Positions 2,679 through 41,603 of a stretch of 64,000 nt of DNA are shown one piece after another. The position numbers were made by a program, and so were the translations under genes. The notes under the pieces were generated by a model. It did not search any database. It saw only the letters and a program-made list of their open reading frames with translations, and was not told the origin of the DNA. How positions within the stretch are numbered: position 1 is the first letter of the stretch; each line of letters opens with the position of its first letter. Origin of the DNA: Alphaproteobacteria bacterium (GTDB lineage: Bacteria > Pseudomonadota > Alphaproteobacteria > CAAHEQ01 > UBA3637). The stretch covers positions 847 to 64,846 of the forward strand of contig JAZRVC010000027.1 in assembly GCA_045598925.1 (NCBI GenBank), read 5' to 3'.

Positions 2679-2690
2679 AAGACCTTTTTA

Positions 2691-2720
2691 CTTGACTTTT
2701 GTCAATTTTTGTTATATTAT
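2691..2720 (+). promoter_or_regulatory. Sigma70-like promoter with palindromic operator (copy 1)
   Basis: CTTGACTTTTGTCAATTTTT: -35 TTGACT at 2692..2697, 17-nt spacer, -10 TATTAT at 2715..2720. The -35 is part of the perfect inverted repeat TTGAC-tttt-GTCAA (2692..2705). Confidence 0.55.
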
Positions 2721-2750
2721 AGACAAAGCAATTTAAAAAGGAGGTCTTAT

Positions 2751-3134
2751 ATGGATAAATCCAGTTTTATTTGGGGCGCCGTCGTTGGGGGGCTTGCTTT
2801 ATGGTATTTTATTTCAAAAGATAAAACCAACGAAAAAACAAACGTGGAAATTCTTCCCGTTAAAACAGTTCATGTTCATTCAGAACCTGAATACGTTTCA
2901 CGCAAGACTTATACAGTGCCACAAAACATCACTTATGCCCCCAGACCGGTGGTGCAACAACCTGTGATTTTTAATACCTATACACCTGCCCCTGTTATTG
3001 TGCCCCCTTGTGTGCCAGCGCCTTACTATTATGGGCCCAGACATTTTTACAGACATCATTACTATCATCACTGTCGCCCGCATTTCAGACGTTGCCCCCC
3101 CTATCATTTCCGTCATTACAGACATTGTTGGTAA
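2751..3134 (+). CDS. Small membrane-anchored protein with a Pro/Tyr/His/Arg-rich C-terminus
   Basis: RBS GGAGG at 2740..2744 with ATG at 2751. There is an N-terminal TM segment (FIWGAVVGGLALWYFI). The C-terminus is low-complexity (...PYYYGPRHFYRHHYYHHCRPHFRRCPPYHFRHYRHCW). Confidence 0.6.
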   Translation: MDKSSFIWGAVVGGLALWYFISKDKTNEKTNVEILPVKTVHVHSEPEYVSRKTYTVPQNITYAPRPVVQQPVIFNTYTPAPVIVPPCVPAPYYYGPRHFYRHHYYHHCRPHFRRCPPYHFRHYRHCW

Positions 3135-3151
3135 AAAAATTTAAAATACAA

Positions 3152-3181
3152 CTTGACTTTTGTCAATTTTTATGATATACT
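3152..3181 (+). promoter_or_regulatory. Sigma70-like promoter with palindromic operator (copy 2)
   Basis: The same 20-mer CTTGACTTTTGTCAATTTTT occurs here: -35 TTGACT at 3153..3158, 17-nt spacer, -10 TATACT at 3176..3181. Confidence 0.55.
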
Positions 3182-3214
3182 TGACGACATCATCTAAAAA
3201 AGGAGGATGAATAA

Positions 3215-4027
3215 ATGAAAAAAACAAACAAACTTTCTGAAACAAGCAAAAAAGCAATTCGTTATATTGCCTTTGCGACAGGTTTAATGGTTGCGGCTTT
3301 ACCCGGTAAATCCAAGGCCGATTTATTGAACTTTAACGCAGATGTAAACGTTTTAGGTTTAGCAGGCGTCAGTACCGGTGTCAATGTCGGACACGCTATC
3401 AATGCCTATGCCGGTGCCAATGCTTTGGGTATCGGTGGTTCAACAGGCGTCAGCGTTGGTAATGGCAGTTTAGTGGATGTCAATGCCGACGCGAATGTTG
3501 GTCCTTTGGCGGGTGCAAATGCCGGACTCAGTGTTGGCAACGGCGTCAATGCCTATGTAGGCGGTAATGTTATAGGTGTTGCCGGTTCAACAGGCATCAG
3601 CGTTGCTTCCTCAGGTTCAACAGCCGCTTATGCTTACCCAACCACTACAGGTTATTACACAACGATGCCCACACGTCCTGTCAGTTATGCCAGTATGGCC
3701 GTGACACAACCCCGTGTTCAATATGTGCAACCGGCTGTGCGTTATGTGCGTGTGGCGGGGGCGCAACCCGTTCGTTATGTCAGCGCCTCTTCTTACAGAC
3801 CAGCCCCTGTGGCCTATCAAACAGCCCAGGCTCCTGTGACGTCTCAAGGTGGACAACGCGTTGAAGTGCAAACTTATGACAGTTATGCTCATGAAAGCGA
3901 AGATTCTCAACTGACACAAACCGTTCAAAAACGTTATGTGGAAGATCCGGAAAACGGCTATCGTGAACAAGAAGTTCATGCACGTAAAGTGATTATTAAA
4001 CGTCGTGTGTATTACACATATGAATAA
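3215..4027 (+). CDS. Secreted repeat protein with Gly/Ala/Asn-rich and R(Y)V-rich repeats
   Basis: RBS AGGAGG is present. A signal peptide is followed by GVSTGVNVG/GSTGVSVGNG-type repeats and then PVRYV/RVQYVQP repeats. Confidence 0.65.
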   Translation: MKKTNKLSETSKKAIRYIAFATGLMVAALPGKSKADLLNFNADVNVLGLAGVSTGVNVGHAINAYAGANALGIGGSTGVSVGNGSLVDVNADANVGPLAGANAGLSVGNGVNAYVGGNVIGVAGSTGISVASSGSTAAYAYPTTTGYYTTMPTRPVSYASMAVTQPRVQYVQPAVRYVRVAGAQPVRYVSASSYRPAPVAYQTAQAPVTSQGGQRVEVQTYDSYAHESEDSQLTQTVQKRYVEDPENGYREQEVHARKVIIKRRVYYTYE

Positions 4028-4039
4028 GTTTTAAAAACA

Positions 4040-4072
4040 AAAGAAAAGGCCCCTGATTTTAAGGGGTCTTTT
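4040..4072. terminator. Bidirectional rho-independent terminator between convergent genes
   Basis: Hairpin ggcccct-gatttta-aggggtc flanked by T-runs, between the 3215..4027(+) gene and mutL(-). Confidence 0.5.
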
Positions 4073-4073
4073 T

Positions 4074-5831
4074 TTATTTGCGACCGAAAAGTTTTTCTAT
4101 ATCGTCTAGTTTTAAAGTAATATAAGTCGGGCGACCATGAATACATTGACCCGAGGTACCACATTCTTCCATCTGACGCAACAGGGCATTCATTTCATCA
4201 ACCGATAACTCTCGCCCTGCCCTGACCGAACCATGACACGCCATACGGGCACAGATATCTTTCATTTTATCCTTTAACAAAACGGTGTCGTCAAATTCTT
4301 TTAAAGTATCCACCAAATCATGAATAATTTTGGTTAAATCGGTTTTATCCAGCACGGCGGGGATTTCCCGAACCGCAACCGAATCCGTTCCAAAAGGGTC
4401 TATCTGCCACCCCATTTGTTTTAATTCTTCCGCTTTAGAGGTCAATAAAAACACTTCATCCGATTTTAAATCCACAATTTCAGGCACCAGCAACAATTGA
4501 GTTTGTGGATGCTCCCCAAAATTCTTCATCATTTTTTCATAGGTCAAACGTTCATGGGCCGCGTGCTGATCCACAATTAAAACAGCATCCTTGGTTTGGC
4601 TGATAATATAGGTTTTATATAGTTGTGCTTTGGCCAATCCCATCGGGGGAAAATCGGCGGGTTGGACAGGAACGGTTTTCTGTGCAACAGGGGTTGTTTT
4701 TACACTATAACTATCGGACAATTGAAAAGATCTTTGTTCTTGGATAGGTGTATAAGACGGACGAGAAAAATGGGGTGTTTTTTCACTCAAGGAGACAGGG
4801 GTACTCTCTAAAGCACCGATTTTAATCGTGGTGGCTGTTTGATGACCGTGTTCGGCCAACACAGACCGAATCGCCGATACCATTATACCACGAATCCGCC
4901 CAGAATCTGCAAAACGCACTTCTGTTTTCGCGGGCGACACATTCACATCCACTTGATGATTCGGCACACTTAAAAACAATGCCAAGACGGGATAGCCATC
5001 ACTGCCGTGTCCCATCAGACCTTGATAAGCCCCACGAATAGCCCCCAATAAGACCTTATCTTTCACACTGCGCCCGTTCACAAACAGGTATTGATCGGTG
5101 GATGTCGCCCGTGTATAAGTGGGCAAACCCACAAACCCCGATAATTTTATCCCTTCATATTGCGTTTGAATGGGCTAAGCGTTTTCCTGAAATTGATGAC
5201 CGATTACCATAGAAACCCTGTCTATCAAACGATTCGTTATAGGATAGGATAAAAGTTTTTTATGCTCATTTGAAAGCGAAAAGGAAATATCGGGATGACT
5301 CATCGCCAATTTATCCACAATTTCCCTGAGGGCCATTTGCTCACTTTGATCAGATTTTAAAAACTTTAAACGCGCAGGGGTGTTATAAAATAACTCTTTG
5401 ACTTCTACGGTCGTTCCGAAAGGTGCGGAAGCGGGCTGAACGGGACGTTTTTGACCTCCGTCCACACAAATACACCAACCTGAATCTGAATCCTTTTGAC
5501 GTGTGGTAATCGTCATTTTTGAAACAGATGCAATAGACGGCAAGGCTTCCCCGCGAAAACCCAAAAAATTGATATCCAATAAATCATCAGAAGGCAACTT
5601 ACTGGTCGCATGACGTTCCACCGCCAAATTGAGTTCTTCAGGATTCATCCCTTTGCCATTATCCGAAACAGAAAAATAGGCTTTACCGCCTTGTTCCACT
5701 TTAATATCAATACGGGTAGCGCCCGCATCAATGGCGTTTTCAATCAATTCTTTGATGGCACTGGCGGGTCTTTCAACAACCTCGCCCGCCGCAATCTGAT
5801 CAATTAAAATTTGGGGTAAAACACGCAACAT
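4074..5831 (-). pseudogene. mutL: DNA mismatch repair protein MutL interrupted by an in-frame TAG stop
   Basis: The N-terminal ATPase ORF (5175..5831; ...ELIENAIDAGAT...) and the C-terminal ORF (4074..5132) are in the same reading frame. Reading through the TAG at 5175..5177 gives ...VIGHQFQENA*PIQTQYEGIKLSGFVGLPTYTRATSTDQYLFVNGRSV..., which aligns colinearly with the MutL transducer region. Confidence 0.75.
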
Positions 5832-12154: not shown

Positions 12155-13081
12155 TTATATATCCACACGCAAACCAACGGACAATGTATGTGTATGGTAG
12201 TCTTTCAACTTTAATTCTTCTGTGGCAGGCGCGTCCCCAGAAGTCCCATACCAATCCAACACAGCCATTTTGCCATAGTGGGTATAACGATAACCGACAT
12301 CTAAATCCACGCGTTTATTTAAAGCATAACTGAGCCCGGCGCCCAACTGCCAAATAAAGTTCGTTTTATTGCTGGAGTGTGAATCCACATCAACCAGACA
12401 AGTCCCAGGAACAGGATCATCTACGGTCAATTTACTCTTCAACCGACCCATACCGATACCGCCCCCAACATAAGGCTTTAATACAGAAGAAAGCGGCACA
12501 TCATAGTAGGCGTTCAATAAAACCGACATCGCCTGAACTTTATGCTTCATCTTATCTTGATCAACACTTCCCACCATATGGGCGTGCGGATAAGTCGTTT
12601 CGGCATCCGAATGCATGGCACCTTCCACTTCAAAGCGCAGATTATCCACGCGCACACCGAAAGCAATTGCCCCGCCCAAGACAGTATCATCTAAATCCCC
12701 TTTATATTTTGCAGATAAAGGACCAATTGTTTGATTGTGTTCAAAATCAGCCATGGCTTTACTGAGCATAAAACGTCCCGCGAAATAAGGCGCCACATTA
12801 GCCCGATAGGTCTTTCTGACGGGTGAAGAACCTGTATTATAGGCAGACGGATACGCTGTCGCCGCAGGGGCCACATAAGTCGGCGCCACATAAACGGGAG
12901 AACGTGTATCCACATAACCATAGGCATACGGTGAAGCACGCCGCGCTGTGCATGAATTTGTCGCACAATTGCAAATTGTTCCCGAAGAACATTGTCCAGC
13001 GCACCGGCAAGTCGGCACTGTACCCGCTTGCACCTGAACAGCCAATAAAGAAATTGACAATCCCCATAAAATTTTTTTCAT
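12155..13081 (-). CDS. Outer-membrane beta-barrel protein (Omp25/Omp31-like) with a Cys-rich N-terminal segment
   Basis: A signal peptide (MKKILWGLSISLLAVQVQA) is followed by 7 Cys in 25 aa, then a P/Y/V-rich linker and a C-terminal barrel with alternating hydrophobic strands (...LDVGYRYTHY...). Confidence 0.65.
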   Translation of the reverse strand: MKKILWGLSISLLAVQVQAGTVPTCRCAGQCSSGTICNCATNSCTARRASPYAYGYVDTRSPVYVAPTYVAPAATAYPSAYNTGSSPVRKTYRANVAPYFAGRFMLSKAMADFEHNQTIGPLSAKYKGDLDDTVLGGAIAFGVRVDNLRFEVEGAMHSDAETTYPHAHMVGSVDQDKMKHKVQAMSVLLNAYYDVPLSSVLKPYVGGGIGMGRLKSKLTVDDPVPGTCLVDVDSHSSNKTNFIWQLGAGLSYALNKRVDLDVGYRYTHYGKMAVLDWYGTSGDAPATEELKLKDYHTHTLSVGLRVDI

Positions 13082-23815: not shown

Positions 23816-26038
23816 CTACTCCCTACACACAGCATGGCCATTATAGTTGTTGCGACCTGCGTTACCCTCATAACCATCGTAGGCCACAAGGCGCGCGTAG
23901 CAGGAAGTATCTCTAAGCGGTGTACTCGTCCAAATATAGTTAGCAACTGCTGCACCAAACATTTTTCGTAAAGTGTTGGCCCGCGTTTTATCTGTGGGAA
24001 TTACACCTGTATATGTTTGAACCGCACTATTTACTTCATCCAATGTAACAAGAGATAAATTCTGAGCTTGACACCAATTATTGGCACTATACCAACTCAT
24101 CATTGTGTTACTATAGGTCCAACCCGTAAATGCAGTGGGATTCTCTTCAACTGTAGAAACAACTCCCCCCATATAATCTGATACTTGCTTACATGTCCCT
24201 ATCGTAGAAACATCACAACCATTAATAACAAGGCGTACACCCGTTGTTAGAAGACAGAACTCTCCCGGATTCGGACAATCCACATTTGTGGCACAACCTT
24301 CTGGTTTATAACATTCCCCCAATGTAGTGCCATCTGCAGAACAAGTATATCCTTTGGCACAACAAACCGCCGTATCACCAATACCACATTTTACCTGACC
24401 ATTAGCACATTCACTGCACTTATAATAAGTTGTCGTGGGTGTCGTACAGGTTGTTTCTTTTCCTTCTGCACATTCTGGTATTGATTCAGTTATTGTCCAA
24501 CTATCATCACAGGTATTAGCAACACATTCGTCCCCTTCTAAATGATACCCTGTATTACATTCACTGCACTTATAATAAGTTGTCGTGGGTGTCGTACAGG
24601 TTGTTTCTTTTCCTTCTGCACATTCTGGTATTGATTCAGTTATTGTCCAACTATCATCACAGGTATTAGCGATACATTTTCCCTCATCATTTTCATAATA
24701 TCCAGAGACACAGTCCCCACACTTTTGAGATATAGAAGGTTTTTGTTTTGGTACCCTATGCGCTTCTTCACAAGAATTAAAACATACACGACTATATTTC
24801 GTATTTGTCGTAGTATCACAATAGGCTTTTTCTTTTTCTGTATATGTACAGGCCGGAACCGGCATAGATGGGAAAACAGCACAAATCCCATCTGCACAAA
24901 TCTTTTGACAATCGTTACCACAATCTGAATTTTTTTCACAAGGAACGACACAATCTTGTATTGATTCATCATAATTTTCTATAGCCTGATTACAGAAGCA
25001 AGAAACCTCTCCTTCTTCTGTCATCATCGTTTTAATAAATCCACCTTTTCCAACAGGAGAACCAAGTGCACACATATTAGAAATACATTTACCTTTATCA
25101 TTTTCATAATATCCAGAGAGACAATCCCCACATTTAGAGGATATATGTGCATCTTTTTCCCGATGCAGTGCGTTACAAGAAGTACAAGCATAATTGTGAT
25201 ACTCATTTAACTCTGTATCACAGTAGGCATTTACACGAATAGTATAATCAGATCCCCCCATACCATTACAAGATGGAATGAGACCAAAATTACGTCGTTC
25301 TTCACAAATTCCCTCACTACACTCTTCTTCGCAATCTGGTTTACAATGAAGATTAGTCATACATTGAACACACTGACTTCCATTCCAATAAGGGGTATCA
25401 CCTGAACACAGGATACAACGTCCCTCTATATCATGATATTCTCCCACACAATCTCCGCATTCGCCATTCGTTCCGTCTTGACGATTTAAAGAGGCGCAAC
25501 TGACACAGCCAGTTTGGGTGTCGTTTAAGGCGGTACCGTCTTCACAAACACAACTTAAATTTTCCCAAGTACTGCCGATATTTTTAAAGCCTTCCTGACA
25601 AGCAAAACTTTCATTAGAGCAATCCGCATGATTTGGACACGCATAGCATTTATCTGTGCCACCAGGGGCAAAAGTACCTTCATCACACGCCACACATTCG
25701 GCCTTGCCCGCCACAGAGTGTGTTCCGGGGCCACACAAGGTACATTCATTTTGGCCATCGCTATAATAGCCCGTGGGACAAGGCTCACAGTTGCCGTCTT
25801 TGGCCACATATCCCAAATCACACAAGCACACACCGAACTCTTTATAGACGTTATCGCCCACGCAGGCACCCTCTTTTAATCTTAACTTCGGGCAATTCCC
25901 AACCCCGCATAATTCCACCGCAATAGACTTCACCCCATTGGGATTTGTGGCTTTTGTTTTACCGCCAAAAAGACCACCGCCCGCCAACACAACCGTGGAT
26001 ACCAAAACCGTACTAAACAATAAAACAACATTTTTCAT
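23816..26038 (-). CDS. Large secreted cysteine-rich protein (GCC2/GCC3- and EGF-like repeats) with a C-type-lectin-like C-terminal domain
   Basis: 740 aa. A Sec signal peptide is followed by CxxCPxGxY...CxxC repeats along most of the length. The C-terminus ...MMSWYSANNWCQAQNLSLVTLDEVN...SCYARLVAYDG...GHAVCRE fits a C-type lectin domain (CTLD). There is an RBS (GAGGAT). It is a paralogue of 32933..34387 and of the partial gene at 1..1105. Confidence 0.7.
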   Translation of the reverse strand: MKNVVLLFSTVLVSTVVLAGGGLFGGKTKATNPNGVKSIAVELCGVGNCPKLRLKEGACVGDNVYKEFGVCLCDLGYVAKDGNCEPCPTGYYSDGQNECTLCGPGTHSVAGKAECVACDEGTFAPGGTDKCYACPNHADCSNESFACQEGFKNIGSTWENLSCVCEDGTALNDTQTGCVSCASLNRQDGTNGECGDCVGEYHDIEGRCILCSGDTPYWNGSQCVQCMTNLHCKPDCEEECSEGICEERRNFGLIPSCNGMGGSDYTIRVNAYCDTELNEYHNYACTSCNALHREKDAHISSKCGDCLSGYYENDKGKCISNMCALGSPVGKGGFIKTMMTEEGEVSCFCNQAIENYDESIQDCVVPCEKNSDCGNDCQKICADGICAVFPSMPVPACTYTEKEKAYCDTTTNTKYSRVCFNSCEEAHRVPKQKPSISQKCGDCVSGYYENDEGKCIANTCDDSWTITESIPECAEGKETTCTTPTTTYYKCSECNTGYHLEGDECVANTCDDSWTITESIPECAEGKETTCTTPTTTYYKCSECANGQVKCGIGDTAVCCAKGYTCSADGTTLGECYKPEGCATNVDCPNPGEFCLLTTGVRLVINGCDVSTIGTCKQVSDYMGGVVSTVEENPTAFTGWTYSNTMMSWYSANNWCQAQNLSLVTLDEVNSAVQTYTGVIPTDKTRANTLRKMFGAAVANYIWTSTPLRDTSCYARLVAYDGYEGNAGRNNYNGHAVCRE
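24407..24670. repeat. Near-perfect intragenic tandem duplication (150-bp period, about 1.75 copies)
   Basis: About 110 nt at 24411..24520 recur at 24561..24670. The duplication encodes two copies of CANTCDDSWTITESIPECAEGKETTCTTPTTTYYKCSEC in the 23816..26038 protein. Confidence 0.8.
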
Positions 26039-32932: not shown

Positions 32933-34387
32933 TTATTCACACATGACATAGGTGCCGTTCATAGCACGAGTACCATAATCTACCCATTCACTATTATATT
33001 GCATTCCAAGGTTCCATGCATAAGTTGTTGTGTGATTACTGGTGGTCGTAATAGTTCCATCTTCACCATAACGTGTCCAAAATGCACCCGTTGTACCAAC
33101 CGCCTTATATAACTTATTATACCCTCTTCCACTAAAAACAGCATTTAAGGGAAGACCTGCCAAAGGACTAATAATTAAACCAGAAGTACCTTTTCCCACA
33201 CACATGGAATTTGCGGCGAACCAATTCATCATAGTTTTATAATAAGGATGTCCTCCTTCCAATGTTGTTCCCCAACCAGAGGTCGGAACTGATTGACATG
33301 TTCCTTCACCACCACACATCCCGGGTTCCTCACAAAAACAAGCAACACATGTCGGTCTGCAATAATAGCCCAACCCACATTGATTTGTTATATAATCATC
33401 ACAAGAACTCGGTTGCGGCTGACAGCCTGAGGCTGTATAAACATCCCCCGATGTGTTGCATTTACAAATGACTGTATCAGGTGCCACTCCAACACTTCCC
33501 GCATAACCGCCGGCCCCATCAATACTTGTTCCTTCTGGACATAGAATGACACAAGTATCCTCTTCCCTTTTAAATCCGCTATCACACACAATTTCCCCTG
33601 TTGTACAGGTGGCGTGTTCAGGACAGATGGCGCAAGCACCAGAAGTATTACAGTAAGCATTTTCCCCTTCACAGGTAATGGGTGTTGTCGTAATACACCC
33701 TGTATCGGGGTCTATCGCGTTTTCGGTAATGGCACAACTTTCTGAAGGTTCGACACACGCTTGACAGACACCTTCGGATTCGTAATAATTATCTATACAC
33801 CCATCGCAATTGCCGTTTGTACCGTCCAAACGCTTGAGAGAGGCACAACTGACACAACCGTCTTGTGTTTCATTTAAGGTGGTACCGTCTTCACAAACAC
33901 AACTTAAATTTTCCCAAGTACTGCCGATATTTTTAAACCCTTCCTGACAAGCAAAACTTTCATTAGAGCAATCCGCATGATTTGGACACGCATAGCATTT
34001 ATCTGTGCCACCCGGGGCAAAAGTACCTGCATCACACGCCACACATTCGGCCTTGCCCGCCACAGAGTGAGTGCCTGGGCCACACAAGGTACATTCGTTT
34101 TGGCCATCACTATAATAGCCCGTGGGACAAGGCTCACAGTTGCCGTCTTTGGCCACATATCCCAAATCACACAAGCACACACCGAACTTTTTATAGACGT
34201 TATCGCCCACACAGGCACCCTCTTTTAATCTTAACTTCGGGCAATTCCCAACCCCGCATAATTCAACCGCAATAGACTTCACCCCGTTGGGATTTGTGGC
34301 TTTTATTTTACCCCCAAACAGAGCGCCGCCCGCCAACACAGCGGTAGAAACTAAAACAGTAGTGGCTAATAAAATAATACGTTGCAT
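32933..34387 (-). CDS. Secreted cysteine-rich protein with a C-type-lectin-like C-terminus (paralogue of 23816..26038)
   Basis: The N-terminal ~170 aa are nearly identical to the 23816 gene product, and the nucleotide sequence is also near-identical (compare 33904..34330 with 25555..25980). The C-terminus reads ...MMNWFAANSMCVGKGTSGLIIS...YVMCE. The gene starts 18 nt downstream of mlaC with RBS AAGGA. Confidence 0.7.
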   Translation of the reverse strand: MQRIILLATTVLVSTAVLAGGALFGGKIKATNPNGVKSIAVELCGVGNCPKLRLKEGACVGDNVYKKFGVCLCDLGYVAKDGNCEPCPTGYYSDGQNECTLCGPGTHSVAGKAECVACDAGTFAPGGTDKCYACPNHADCSNESFACQEGFKNIGSTWENLSCVCEDGTTLNETQDGCVSCASLKRLDGTNGNCDGCIDNYYESEGVCQACVEPSESCAITENAIDPDTGCITTTPITCEGENAYCNTSGACAICPEHATCTTGEIVCDSGFKREEDTCVILCPEGTSIDGAGGYAGSVGVAPDTVICKCNTSGDVYTASGCQPQPSSCDDYITNQCGLGYYCRPTCVACFCEEPGMCGGEGTCQSVPTSGWGTTLEGGHPYYKTMMNWFAANSMCVGKGTSGLIISPLAGLPLNAVFSGRGYNKLYKAVGTTGAFWTRYGEDGTITTTSNHTTTYAWNLGMQYNSEWVDYGTRAMNGTYVMCE

Positions 34388-39845: not shown

Positions 39846-41603
39846 TTATGAAATTGTACAAGCATGTGTTGTAGAATCCCAATTTTTGCCACCCAACTTT
39901 TTACATTCTTCCGACGAATTTGTCGTTGGGAATTCAGTTCTGGTTGCGGTTGAAGGCAGGAACAAAGTATTTCCTGAATCATCTTTAAAGTTATCTTTAT
40001 CAAACACACAGTAGGTTTGAACGACCGCTTTTGCCGAAGAATCAGGAGTACATGATCCACCGTTATTCTTACCCAAAGTGACAGACCATAAACCAGTGCT
40101 ATTATGTGCGACGGTATCCATTGAGTGAGCCGAACCTGCAATCTGCACACAAAGTCCCGTATCATTTTTAACGGAAACATTTGGATATGAGAAAGTTGTT
40201 CCTGAAACTTTTAATTGAGGAATCGTTATCTCATTATTAGTGTTAGCATCATCTAGATCAATCTCTTTTGACTCTGTTTTTACTCGATCATCTGATAAAT
40301 CATTATCATTTAATGTCAAAGCAGGAATATCAACAGTTAATTCTCGTTTATCCCAAGTGGTTGGTAAAACCACCAAGGCTTTTTTATAACCTGTCGGGCA
40401 ATCTGGTTTTTCAACCGCCCCCCCCCCTGATGCAATTTCCTTCTGCGTTTTTAAAATATAGTTCGGTAAAATTTCAGACAGGCTGGCCCCACCCCGAGAT
40501 GTCAATTTAACATCATTCAGAATTGAGGTATAGGCCGGATCCAAAAGATAACGTCTTTCTTGACCATTATCTTGAGCATCTGGACCGCTGTCTGCAAAGA
40601 AAATAGCCCCTTCTTTAGTTAAACGAATAGCGGCAGGTGAATTGGCCGGGTCATCTTGATCATAGCCCACATTCAAATCATTGCGCGTATAAACCGAACC
40701 ATTTTCATCGGCTTCCACCCAGAAAGTCGGCAAACAAGTGGGAGGCACATGCACCTCATCAGGATTCACAATAGAAACACCATTTGAATCAACCTCTGCG
40801 GTATTGTGATTAATGTATGACTCAGAATAACATCCCGTGGCATTCCCCACAGAAAAGTGGCCATAAGCATTTAATTTACGAACCTGTAAATCCAAATCTT
40901 TCGACAATGTCACTTTGGCTTGTTGTTTTTCATATTCGGGGGTAAAGACATCAAATCCCGTTGTGGCCGCATAAACCGCCCCGTGATAGTCGGCATCTTC
41001 CATACCGTCTATTTTATCCAAATGCCATGTTCCCAAAGAACCCGCTATTTCATCGTTGGTCGGTTCCCCATAAACGCCACCGTCTGCCCCAATCAATAGG
41101 GCAACGCGTGCCGCCCGCTTAAAGTTCCAACCTGTGGCGGGAATAGTTGCTGTTGTCGGGAAAACGACTCCGTAAATTTTAACCGCGGCCGTATCGTCAT
41201 TTTGACGATAAATCCATAAAGAAGGATTGTAATATTCGCCCAATCCCCCATCTGAAAACCACCCGTCCGGTAAATATTCGGAAATATTATCAGATAAACC
41301 ACCGATAGCACATTGATTCACATTATTGCAAGGATCACTTGGCGTACCAGTAGAACAAACAGGGGGAATTTGCTCCGCACACGTTGTTTGAATTTCGGCA
41401 GAATGGGCCTGAATATAGGCCGCGAAAGCCTCCTTAACTGTCCGAATTTCTGATGCCATTTGAATATTGTGTAATTCTTGGTTTCTTTGATAGATTTGAC
41501 GAAACAGCATTGCCCCCATCACGCCCATCAATGCCAACACAGCAATGACTTCCAACATAATAGAACCTTGTTGTGTCTTTCTTTTTTCAACTGTTAAAAC
41601 CAT
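39846..41603 (-). CDS. Very large type-IV-prepilin-like (pseudopilin-like) protein
   Basis: 585 aa. The N-terminus MVLTVEKRKTQQG|SIMLEVIAVLALMGVMGAM has a basic N-region, Gly at -1, Glu at +5 and a hydrophobic helix, i.e. a class III signal. The large C-terminal domain contains paired Cys and has no assigned family. Confidence 0.6.
   Translation of the reverse strand: MVLTVEKRKTQQGSIMLEVIAVLALMGVMGAMLFRQIYQRNQELHNIQMASEIRTVKEAFAAYIQAHSAEIQTTCAEQIPPVCSTGTPSDPCNNVNQCAIGGLSDNISEYLPDGWFSDGGLGEYYNPSLWIYRQNDDTAAVKIYGVVFPTTATIPATGWNFKRAARVALLIGADGGVYGEPTNDEIAGSLGTWHLDKIDGMEDADYHGAVYAATTGFDVFTPEYEKQQAKVTLSKDLDLQVRKLNAYGHFSVGNATGCYSESYINHNTAEVDSNGVSIVNPDEVHVPPTCLPTFWVEADENGSVYTRNDLNVGYDQDDPANSPAAIRLTKEGAIFFADSGPDAQDNGQERRYLLDPAYTSILNDVKLTSRGGASLSEILPNYILKTQKEIASGGGAVEKPDCPTGYKKALVVLPTTWDKRELTVDIPALTLNDNDLSDDRVKTESKEIDLDDANTNNEITIPQLKVSGTTFSYPNVSVKNDTGLCVQIAGSAHSMDTVAHNSTGLWSVTLGKNNGGSCTPDSSAKAVVQTYCVFDKDNFKDDSGNTLFLPSTATRTEFPTTNSSEECKKLGGKNWDSTTHACTIS

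Follow-up and report, generated by a model that had tools for sequence, protein, structure and literature searches.

Strong σ70 promoters with an extended −10 element (TGn or TRTGn) are found among Gram-positive and phage early promoters, and the Dot/Icm effector promoters of Legionella and Coxiella carry, in place of the −35, a PmrA element that is built as a tandem direct repeat (TTAATATT-N2-TTAATATT). Binding sites of the CRP/FNR family accept any N4 between their half-sites, and CRP/FNR-family genes and NirK-like genes are classical contexts of FNR/Dnr-type boxes. Here we describe two promoters, P1 and P2, in a 64,000-nucleotide stretch of DNA from an uncultured gut alphaproteobacterium (the window, by which we mean the whole stretch that was analyzed). 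They precede two consecutive genes for small, predicted envelope proteins (gene 1 and gene 2), and in both the −35 forms half of the inverted repeat TTGAC-TTTT-GTCAA. Two described boxes come closest to this repeat. Comparative genomics of delta-proteobacteria and cyanobacteria yielded TTGACnnnnGTCAA as the FNR-like HcpR motif (PMC1274295), and in the katAp2 promoter of P. aeruginosa an Anr box, TTGac-N4-gtCAA, overlaps the −35 with its center at −29, transcription being anr-dependent (PMC4974557). Our overall reading, which we hold tentatively and as somewhat short of probable, is that P1 and P2 are near-maximal σ70 promoters with an overlapping putative operator for a CRP/FNR-type dimer. A promoter with a putative overlapping operator is a known kind of mechanism, not a new one.

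The P1 and P2 repeat fits TTGAY-N4-RTCAA, the published HcpR/Anr consensus, exactly and has the same 5-4-5 inverted repeat as the HcpR and katAp2 boxes; like the latter it overlaps the −35, with its center at about −28.5 here versus −29 there. It differs from both in that the promoters already match the consensus, the N4 and 3′ flank scarcely vary, and half-sites are dispensable in some orthologs. The genes concerned here encode orphan envelope proteins and, elsewhere, ankyrin-repeat proteins, none of them classical targets of FNR or HcpR, and no regulator was identified in the window. With strong extended −10 promoters P1 and P2 share TTGACT, a 17-bp spacer, TRTGnTATAAT and a strong Shine-Dalgarno sequence, but unlike in generic strong promoters the spacer is conserved across species. 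As in PmrA effector regulons, a near-invariant element in fixed register with the −10 precedes many fast-evolving, often ankyrin-repeat, host-interaction genes; unlike the PmrA element, it is an inverted repeat that includes a consensus −35, and a two-component operon was seen only beside a decayed copy at one ankyrin locus (L160, below). The T7 A1 promoter (TTGACTTAAAGTCTAACC...) presumably contains a GAC..GTC repeat downstream of its −35 as well, together with the GTCTAAC that P1 of one relative (L002, below) has in its spacer.

Structure and conservation of P1 and P2

The initial annotation had reported an identical 20-mer, CTTGACTTTTGTCAATTTTT, at 2691–2710 and 3152–3171. This was confirmed, except that an A precedes both copies, making the true repeat 21 nt long (2690–2710 and 3151–3171). 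No third match to the 20-mer occurs in the window at up to three mismatches, and none of 100 dinucleotide-preserving shuffles of the window contained it twice. Beyond the identical bases, P1 and P2 are similar without gaps over 50 nt (78%; family D13), reaching the −10 and the 5′ untranslated region (5′UTR). The layout that had been proposed was likewise borne out: a consensus scan returned TTGACT-17-TATTAT at 2692–2720 for P1 and TTGACT-17-TATACT with an upstream TG at 3153–3181 for P2, each matching at 10 of 12 positions, and both genes have AAGGAGG 6–8 nt before an ATG that lies 30 nt (gene 1, at 2751) or 33 nt (gene 2, at 3215) past the −10. The perfect inverted repeat that includes the −35, also part of that description, is exact at P1 and P2 and found nowhere else in the window; five matches to TTGAC-N4-GTCAA with one mismatch all lie within open reading frames (ORFs). 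The promoter features are as follows.

2690–2710, plus strand: first copy of the 21-mer ACTTGACTTTTGTCAATTTTT, comprising the −35 and the first 13 nt of the P1 spacer (window search).
2692–2697, plus strand: P1 −35, TTGACT (consensus scan; invariant in 5 of 5 orthologous P1 promoters).
2692–2705, plus strand: P1 palindrome TTGAC-TTTT-GTCAA, centered at 2698.5, about −28.5 from the predicted start.
2715–2720, plus strand: P1 −10, TATTAT, after a 17-nt spacer (TATAAT in all relatives); start predicted near 2727.
2738–2744, plus strand: Shine-Dalgarno AAGGAGG of gene 1, from the sequence.
3151–3171, plus strand: second copy of the 21-mer, comprising the −35 and the first 13 nt of the P2 spacer (window search).
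3153–3158, plus strand: P2 −35, TTGACT (consensus scan and cross-lineage comparison).
3153–3166, plus strand: P2 palindrome TTGAC-TTTT-GTCAA, centered at 3159.5, about −28.5 from the predicted start.
3171–3181, plus strand: P2 extended −10, TATG-A-TATACT (TRTGn plus the hexamer at 3176–3181); start predicted near 3187–3189.
3187–3214, plus strand: P2 5′UTR, with ATCATCT and AAAAAAGGAGGATG invariant in six lineages and AAGGAGG at 3200–3206.

How old are these promoters? The gene order fer4, tsaC/sua5, a small gene, a gene 2 homolog and a reversed mutL, with a reversed uvrB next to it on contigs long enough to include one, recurs on contigs of relatives that we fetched (L-numbers denote fetched contigs or loci of relatives or matches): L001; L002–L006, together with L061 from the genome scan described below, from Hadza human gut; L007–L008; L165 (GCA_045643025.1); and L166. 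Both promoters occupy the same syntenic place in five or six related lineages. At four-fold degenerate sites of tsaC, identity among the window, L001, L002 and L166 is 29–52%, which is near saturation (L002 and L007, a close pair, are 78% identical). Against this background, 23–30 of the 30 positions from −36 to −7 of P1 and P2 are identical between lineages, versus 3–14 of the 30 nt directly upstream of P2. In alignments of all relatives the footprint has a sharp start at (C/A)TTGAC and takes in the −10, the sequence immediately upstream being scrambled, and at P2 conservation extends past the 5′UTR (ATCATCTAAAAAAGGAGGATG) to the first codons. L165 retains P2 even though its gene 2 protein is barely recognizable (E = 5e-16), and L166 has the identical 20-mer at both positions, like the window. 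Because the promoters are nearly identical where four-fold sites are nearly saturated, and because the footprint starts so sharply at the −35, we consider P1 and P2 to be ancient, functional and under purifying selection. Judged from these alignments, they are almost certainly two separate functional σ70-type promoters.

This history also bears on the suggestion that the pair is simply a duplicated promoter cassette. A recent duplication, gene conversion or a mobile cassette would explain the 21 identical bases and the 78% similarity over 50 nt, as well as two further details: P1 of the window and L166 shares a C at −36 with P2, where other lineages have A, and a decayed copy of the element lies beside a different promoter in L160. 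However, every related lineage has both promoters in place although synonymous sites are saturated, gene 1 is not related to gene 2, terminal repeats and target duplications are absent, and conservation stops exactly at the functional promoter boundary. Recent duplication as the main cause is thus already largely refuted, and we give it hardly any credence. The pair is older than the separation of lineages with nearly saturated synonymous sites, so its identity is kept by selection. We also rejected the idea that genes 1 and 2 are paralogs duplicated together with their promoter, as their comparison gives a BLASTP E value of 0.82.

Several other complementarities surround the two promoters. 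In the P2 leader (3189–3209), CATCATCT, an invariant part of the 5′UTR, complements GGAGGATG in the region of the Shine-Dalgarno sequence, and both arms are invariant in six lineages; the hairpin (−6.1 kcal/mol, z = −1.5) is not significant alone, and it could sequester the ribosome-binding site, perhaps in a temperature- or factor-sensitive manner. At gene 1, AAGACCTTTTT, just past the tsaC stop codon (2679–2689), is complementary to the ribosome-binding site AAAAAGGAGGTCTT (2735–2748), with a fold of −18.3 kcal/mol (z = −3.25) that none of 200 shuffles matched. This pairing would mask the gene 1 site in tsaC read-through only, not in P1 transcripts. A weaker T-tract/A-tract complementarity is present in L002, L007 and L166 and missing from L001. 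A second inverted repeat spans the P2 −10 and start site (3172–3193), reading ATGAT..ATCAT in the window and ATGATA-N9-TATCAT or ATGATAT-N7-ATATCAT in relatives (L001, L002, L165 and L166), with a register that differs by lineage. The window and L166 also have an extra TTGAC (3181–3185 in the window) overlapping the end of the P2 −10.

A conserved spacer and a putative operator

To compare promoters free of motif bias, we relied on 11 orthologous promoters that were retrieved via their proteins. Their consensus is TTGACt TTTGTCaA.tTTT.t.A TATaaT, with a 17-bp spacer in every one. TTGAC and spacer positions 1–6 (TTTGTC), 8 (A), 11–13 (TTT) and 17 are invariant in all 11; both palindrome halves are intact in nine, and the N4 is constant but for one ATTT. 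Some flanks have changed symmetrically, giving ATTGAC..GTCAAT at P1 of L001 and CTTGAC..GTCAAG at P2 of L001 and L165 (6-4-6 in both forms). Other good promoters of the window, including those of tRNA-His (CTTGACATTTTGTGGTGTTTTGTTTATACT), tRNA-Glu, the outer-membrane protein gene at 12155–13081 and several more, have unrelated spacers and no GTCAA. Since T-richness is widespread in this genome and GTCAA is not, the spacer of P1 and P2 is specifically selected.

How might such a spacer be read? Together with the −35, its first eight bases, TTTGTCAA, form the 5-4-5 palindrome TTGAC-N4-GTCAA, and because they are constrained beyond the needs of RNA polymerase, we infer that a trans-acting protein recognizes TTTGTCAA. 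First among the candidates is a dimeric helix-turn-helix regulator with CRP/FNR-type geometry, which would occupy the −35 and the upstream part of the spacer, centered at about −28.5, and compete or cooperate with σ region 4. Since the promoters already match the consensus, the regulator would most simply be a repressor or modulator of P1 and P2. One signal would then couple the expression of both surface proteins and, in related gut Alphaproteobacteria, would also act on the ankyrin-repeat operons in which this 19-nt module is present. A CRP/FNR-type dimer is the best-supported candidate reader because the palindrome matches the HcpR/Anr box and because of two contexts in which we found the 14-mer TTGACTTTTGTCAA: 183 nt upstream of a gene with cNMP_binding and HTH_Crp_2 domains in a Pseudomonadota metagenome-assembled genome (MAG; L014), and 97 nt upstream of an ORF in an Oceanospirillaceae MAG (L036) that is NirK-like as judged from its N terminus.

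A number of observations weigh against an operator. Among the 57 window ORFs of at least 80 amino acids, a Pfam scan and a reading of N termini identified no CRP/FNR protein or other plausible regulator, NrdR being the sole transcription factor found in the 64 kb; nor did tblastn detect a CRP/FNR-family gene among the relatives' loci that were fetched. The promoter outlasts the loss of either half-site: P1 of L002 and L007 has a broken right half (GTCTA, within GTCTAAC), and L159 has TTGCA as its left half. Hardly any variation is seen in the N4 (TTTT) or in the right flank (TTTT[T]), unlike in ordinary operators, and the flanks are asymmetric. The distribution of position weight matrix (PWM) scores is all-or-none, as for a promoter class more than a graded regulon, and in the window's genus-level group (about 90 kb in total) the motif occurs at P1 and P2 only. 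In viral contigs the palindromic 18-mer TTGACTTTTGTCAATTTT was present at 12 loci, versus 9, 9 and 13 for composition-matched permutations (one of which, AGTCA, is a weaker control since it is itself palindromic with TGACT); because there is no excess over permutations, the palindromic word seems to have no general significance. Finally, the palindrome is centered at about −28.5 from the predicted start, not at the −41.5 or −61.5 of classical FNR/CRP activation. This position would fit repression or the unusual katAp2 arrangement.

Of the annotation's proposal that a dimeric regulator binds over the −35, the parts that stand are the selection on TTTGTCAA and the identity of the palindrome with an FNR-family box; the breakable halves, the near-invariant N4 and right flank and the failure to find a regulator in the window tell against it. 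We therefore put forward the operator itself with reserve, as a possibility that falls a little short of an even bet. That P1 and P2 jointly define a co-regulated surface-protein module is plausible. Were the operator confirmed, it would provide a sequence handle for co-regulated surface and effector genes in gut Alphaproteobacteria represented by metagenomes only, and would add a case of an FNR-type box at −28.5 on a consensus promoter. Even without a regulator, the locus offers two very strong native promoters with their ribosome-binding sites and flags two orphan envelope proteins for annotation. Literature string searches did not find the motif in this context, returning only the HcpR and katAp2 papers (PMC1274295, PMC4974557) and unrelated primer sequences.

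The main rival of the operator is a promoter shaped by RNA polymerase and DNA structure alone, an explanation that we find serious and yet somewhat doubtful. P1 and P2 would be constitutive, maximally optimized core promoters for very abundant envelope proteins, with a spacer set by polymerase contacts or DNA shape (for example, T-tracts phased at about −43, −29 and −19, roughly 10.5 bp apart, and a T-run leading into the TRTG of the extended −10) and with GTCAA incidental. Every known strength element is indeed at consensus (−35, 17-bp spacer, TRTGn, TATAAT and AAGGAGG); spacers that are T-rich and 17 nt long are a general trait of the genome, and the promoter of tRNA-His (CTTGACATTTTGTGG...) even has the same TTTTGT directly behind its −35; and the all-or-none occurrence of the motif in fixed register to the −10, the tolerance of a break in either half and the failure to find a regulator gene in the window are what a constitutive promoter would predict. 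It accounts less well for the invariance of GTC, seen in 11 of 11 promoters and in distant lineages too, for the other strong window promoters, which do without GTCAA, and for the symmetric flank changes in L001 and L165. We know of no evidence that RNA polymerase reads positions −29 to −22 of σ70 promoters base-specifically.

An RNA-level explanation was also considered. Transcribed, the repeat becomes UUGAC-UUUU-GUCAA followed by U5, which might be a small intrinsic terminator or insulator acting on read-through from tsaC or gene 1 and overlapping the next promoter. The hairpin and U-run lie 13–17 nt past the upstream stop codons, the fold (−4.4 kcal/mol) was equaled in only 1 of 200 shuffles and reaches −8.2 kcal/mol in the extended version at P2 of L001, and the A..T to C..G flank changes resemble stem covariation. 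Its stem, however, has 5 bp with two GC pairs, far weaker than the real terminator at 4048–4076 (−15.9 kcal/mol); GTCTAAC destroys it at P1 of L002 and L007; and the rabbit-MAG module described below also stands in divergent intergenic regions that receive no co-directional transcript from upstream. On these three grounds we rejected a terminator as a general explanation and regard it as very improbable.

Other promoter architectures fitted poorly. A class II FNR geometry, with the box at −41.5, would place a −10 at 21–22 nt downstream, and no conserved one is seen there at P1, at P2 or before the ankyrin genes, whereas all of these promoters have TAnnnn at 17 nt from TTGACT. A divergent TTGACA promoter on the reverse strand has a −10 (TAAATT) only at the second window copy and is not conserved in relatives. 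MerR-type promoters need a 19–20-bp spacer with the operator between −35 and −10, whereas P1 and P2 have the optimal 17 bp and a palindrome that both abuts and includes the −35. Direct repeats of the response-regulator type (periods of 7, 10 and 11 nt) matched poorly, and a phage BLAST of the promoter gave nothing significant.

Recurrence of the module

A genome scan with the 18-mer returned at least 119 loci; the source genome is not among the matches listed, and most of those that are listed are unrelated AT-rich DNA. Among the matches listed, at least 15 loci belong to animal-gut MAGs labeled Alphaproteobacteria (rabbit, ruminant, mouse and human). The window organism is no more than a distant relative of these MAGs, with about 40% identity between shared proteins, and the loci carry an ascertainment bias, as the motif itself led to most of them. 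Rabbit MAGs have two or three sites each among the matches listed, where TTTTTnGCTTGACTTTTGTCAATTTTTAYGGTAAAAn lies 59–74 nt before the ATG of ankyrin-repeat proteins, and the module heads five different ankyrin-repeat families or operons within arrays of such genes. The module also heads two orphan families, and in the MAGs from ruminants and mouse the genes downstream of it encode small orphan proteins, one of them lipoprotein-like. The register is constant across the gut MAGs, with a TAnnnn −10 at 17 nt, and the PWM scan is bimodal, scores being at least 26 or at most 13 with none between. Thus the further copies that the annotation had envisaged do exist in gut Alphaproteobacteria other than this one, where they lie upstream of ankyrin operons and of genes for small secreted or orphan proteins, and the window holds none beyond P1 and P2.

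Two ankyrin loci were reached independently of the motif. L159, which encodes a 49% identical ortholog of one ankyrin protein, reads CTTGCATTTTGTCAAATTTTATGTTAAAAG, with the left half changed to TTGCA and the spacer TTTGTCAAATTTT kept. In L160 a decayed copy, TTATTTTTGTCAATTTTTAT, precedes a separate TTGACA-17-TATAAT promoter.

The rabbit sequences speak against a purely constitutive promoter, as their module is paired with weak −10 hexamers (TAAAAG, TAAAAA) that lack the T at −7, which suggests dependence on something bound to the module. The broader scan favors it: among unrelated taxa, TAnnnT stands at exactly 17 nt in 20 of the 97 listed 18-mer occurrences, versus about 3 at other offsets, and because of this excess the 18-mer is probably often a promoter in unrelated bacteria too. 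One more alternative is that the module, instead of being a repressor operator on a housekeeping promoter, marks a special promoter class for an activator or an alternative σ-type factor controlling a host-interaction regulon of surface and ankyrin-repeat proteins. A near-invariant 19-nt module in fixed register before five ankyrin-repeat families with a poor −10 would be expected of such a class, and Anr-dependent activation from a box at −29 has a precedent in katAp2 (PMC4974557). We nonetheless consider it quite improbable, given that the −35 and −10 of the window lineage already match the σ70 consensus and need no helper, that no candidate factor was found and that the loci in other MAGs are mostly motif-ascertained.

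Returning to the putative operator, it is tempting to view the module, TTGACTTTTGTCAATTTTT, as the cis-acting mark of a host-interaction regulon that spans a clade of uncultured Alphaproteobacteria from animal guts. Bound at −28.5, a single sensor of FNR type (responding to oxygen, nitric oxide or redox state), or a different σ-contacting factor, would control the fast-evolving surface proteins of the window lineage together with arrays of ankyrin effector operons in lineages of the rabbit gut. This extension is speculative and, in our estimation, unlikely.

A few observations on the recovered loci may be useful. The rabbit MAG loci L016, L095 and L127 contain dense ankyrin-repeat gene arrays, with up to 7 genes in 8 kb arranged in short operons, and most of the operons seen there are headed by the 19-nt module. 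Pilin-like proteins (N terminus ...SMVEMLGVLAIIGV...) are encoded near the rabbit ankyrin arrays, and the window ORF at 39846–41603 has a similar N terminus. In L160 (2278–4846 and 4900–5003), an operon for an Hpt protein, an OmpR-type response regulator and a histidine kinase lies immediately upstream of a 501-amino acid ankyrin-repeat gene, whose upstream region is the site of the decayed module copy. Of the 31 loci that the 20-mer matched in a metagenome scan, nearly all were irrelevant (coding sequence of Pelagibacter and a repeat associated with moss), the sole relevant match being another L002-type copy. The 18-mer also lies within a dispersed repeat (AAAAATYCAATATTGACTTTTGTCAATTTTTTTGAATACCCAAAAACCGATCGACAGAAA), with an AAAAATT-type satellite after it, of the MAG "Deltaproteobacteria bacterium RSWP7", where the repeat is present on at least six contigs (L010, L025, L049, L072, L105 and L118) and is unrelated to our finding.

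The two envelope-protein genes and other features of the window

The genes served by P1 and P2 had been described as encoding small secreted or membrane-anchored low-complexity proteins, one P/Y/H-rich and the other G/A/N-rich with RYV repeats, and this description proved accurate.

2751–3134, plus strand: gene 1, 127 amino acids, with an N-terminal hydrophobic or membrane helix and a hypervariable His/Tyr/Arg/Cys/Pro-rich tail.
3215–4027, plus strand: gene 2, 270 amino acids, of secreted type, with a signal-peptide-like N terminus, a variable G/A/N/V-rich middle and VRYV repeats.
4048–4076, no strand assigned: GC-rich hairpin GGCCCCT..AGGGGTC followed by a T-run (−15.9 kcal/mol), which closes the two-gene module and faces the convergent mutL.

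Neither protein could be placed in a family by Pfam, NCBIfam or exhaustive hidden Markov model searches. In a word-indexed search of 5.8 billion proteins, gene 1 matched itself alone and gene 2 had three relatives (62%, 43% and 42% identity); an exhaustive profile search of 1.84 billion representative proteins gave a gene 2 family of five members. About 70 amino acids at the gene 2 C terminus are conserved, ending in RRVYYTYE, and an AlphaFold2 model of the protein was unusable (predicted local distance difference test score of 35). Positional orthologs are 32–46% identical for gene 1 and 42–62% for gene 2, compared with 94% for UvrB, 86–93% for TsaC and 80–86% for MutL, so that both diverge far more than their neighbors, a pattern typical of surface molecules under host or phage pressure. 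From their sequences, both appear to be small, envelope-targeted, low-complexity proteins and rapidly diverging orphans, and because of the strong promoter and ribosome-binding signals they are probably abundant.

The gene 1 tail is remade in each lineage (HHYYHHCRPH..., GGFHHGGFHH..., PPPPPRNRC... and HGGFGGHGGMMHGG...) and always ends near Cys-Trp or Cys-Arg-Tyr/Trp. Such His/Cys-rich tails suggest metal binding. A Zur/Fur-type metal repressor, which the His-rich tail brings to mind, was dropped as a candidate to read the palindrome: no operator of that type matched, and the motif also precedes gene 2 and the ankyrin genes, which have no His-rich feature.

Elsewhere in the window, mutL (4074–5831, minus strand) has an in-frame TAG at 5175–5177 where all relatives encode Leu (QENA*PIQ versus SENALPVQ), its halves forming two ORFs in the same frame. 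Either the TAG is a true nonsense mutation, in which case it would point to a mutator genotype, or it results from an error in assembly or sequencing. Two paralogous genes at 23816–26038 and 32933–34387 (both minus strand) encode large secreted Cys-rich proteins with near-identical N termini and weak matches to TNFR/ELAPOR-like and ephrin-receptor-like Cys-rich domains; they share a 300-nt repeat (25431–25730 and 33780–34079, 87% identity), and the longer gene also contains two copies of a 122-nt repeat (24407–24678) that are 98% identical and spaced 150 nt from start to start.

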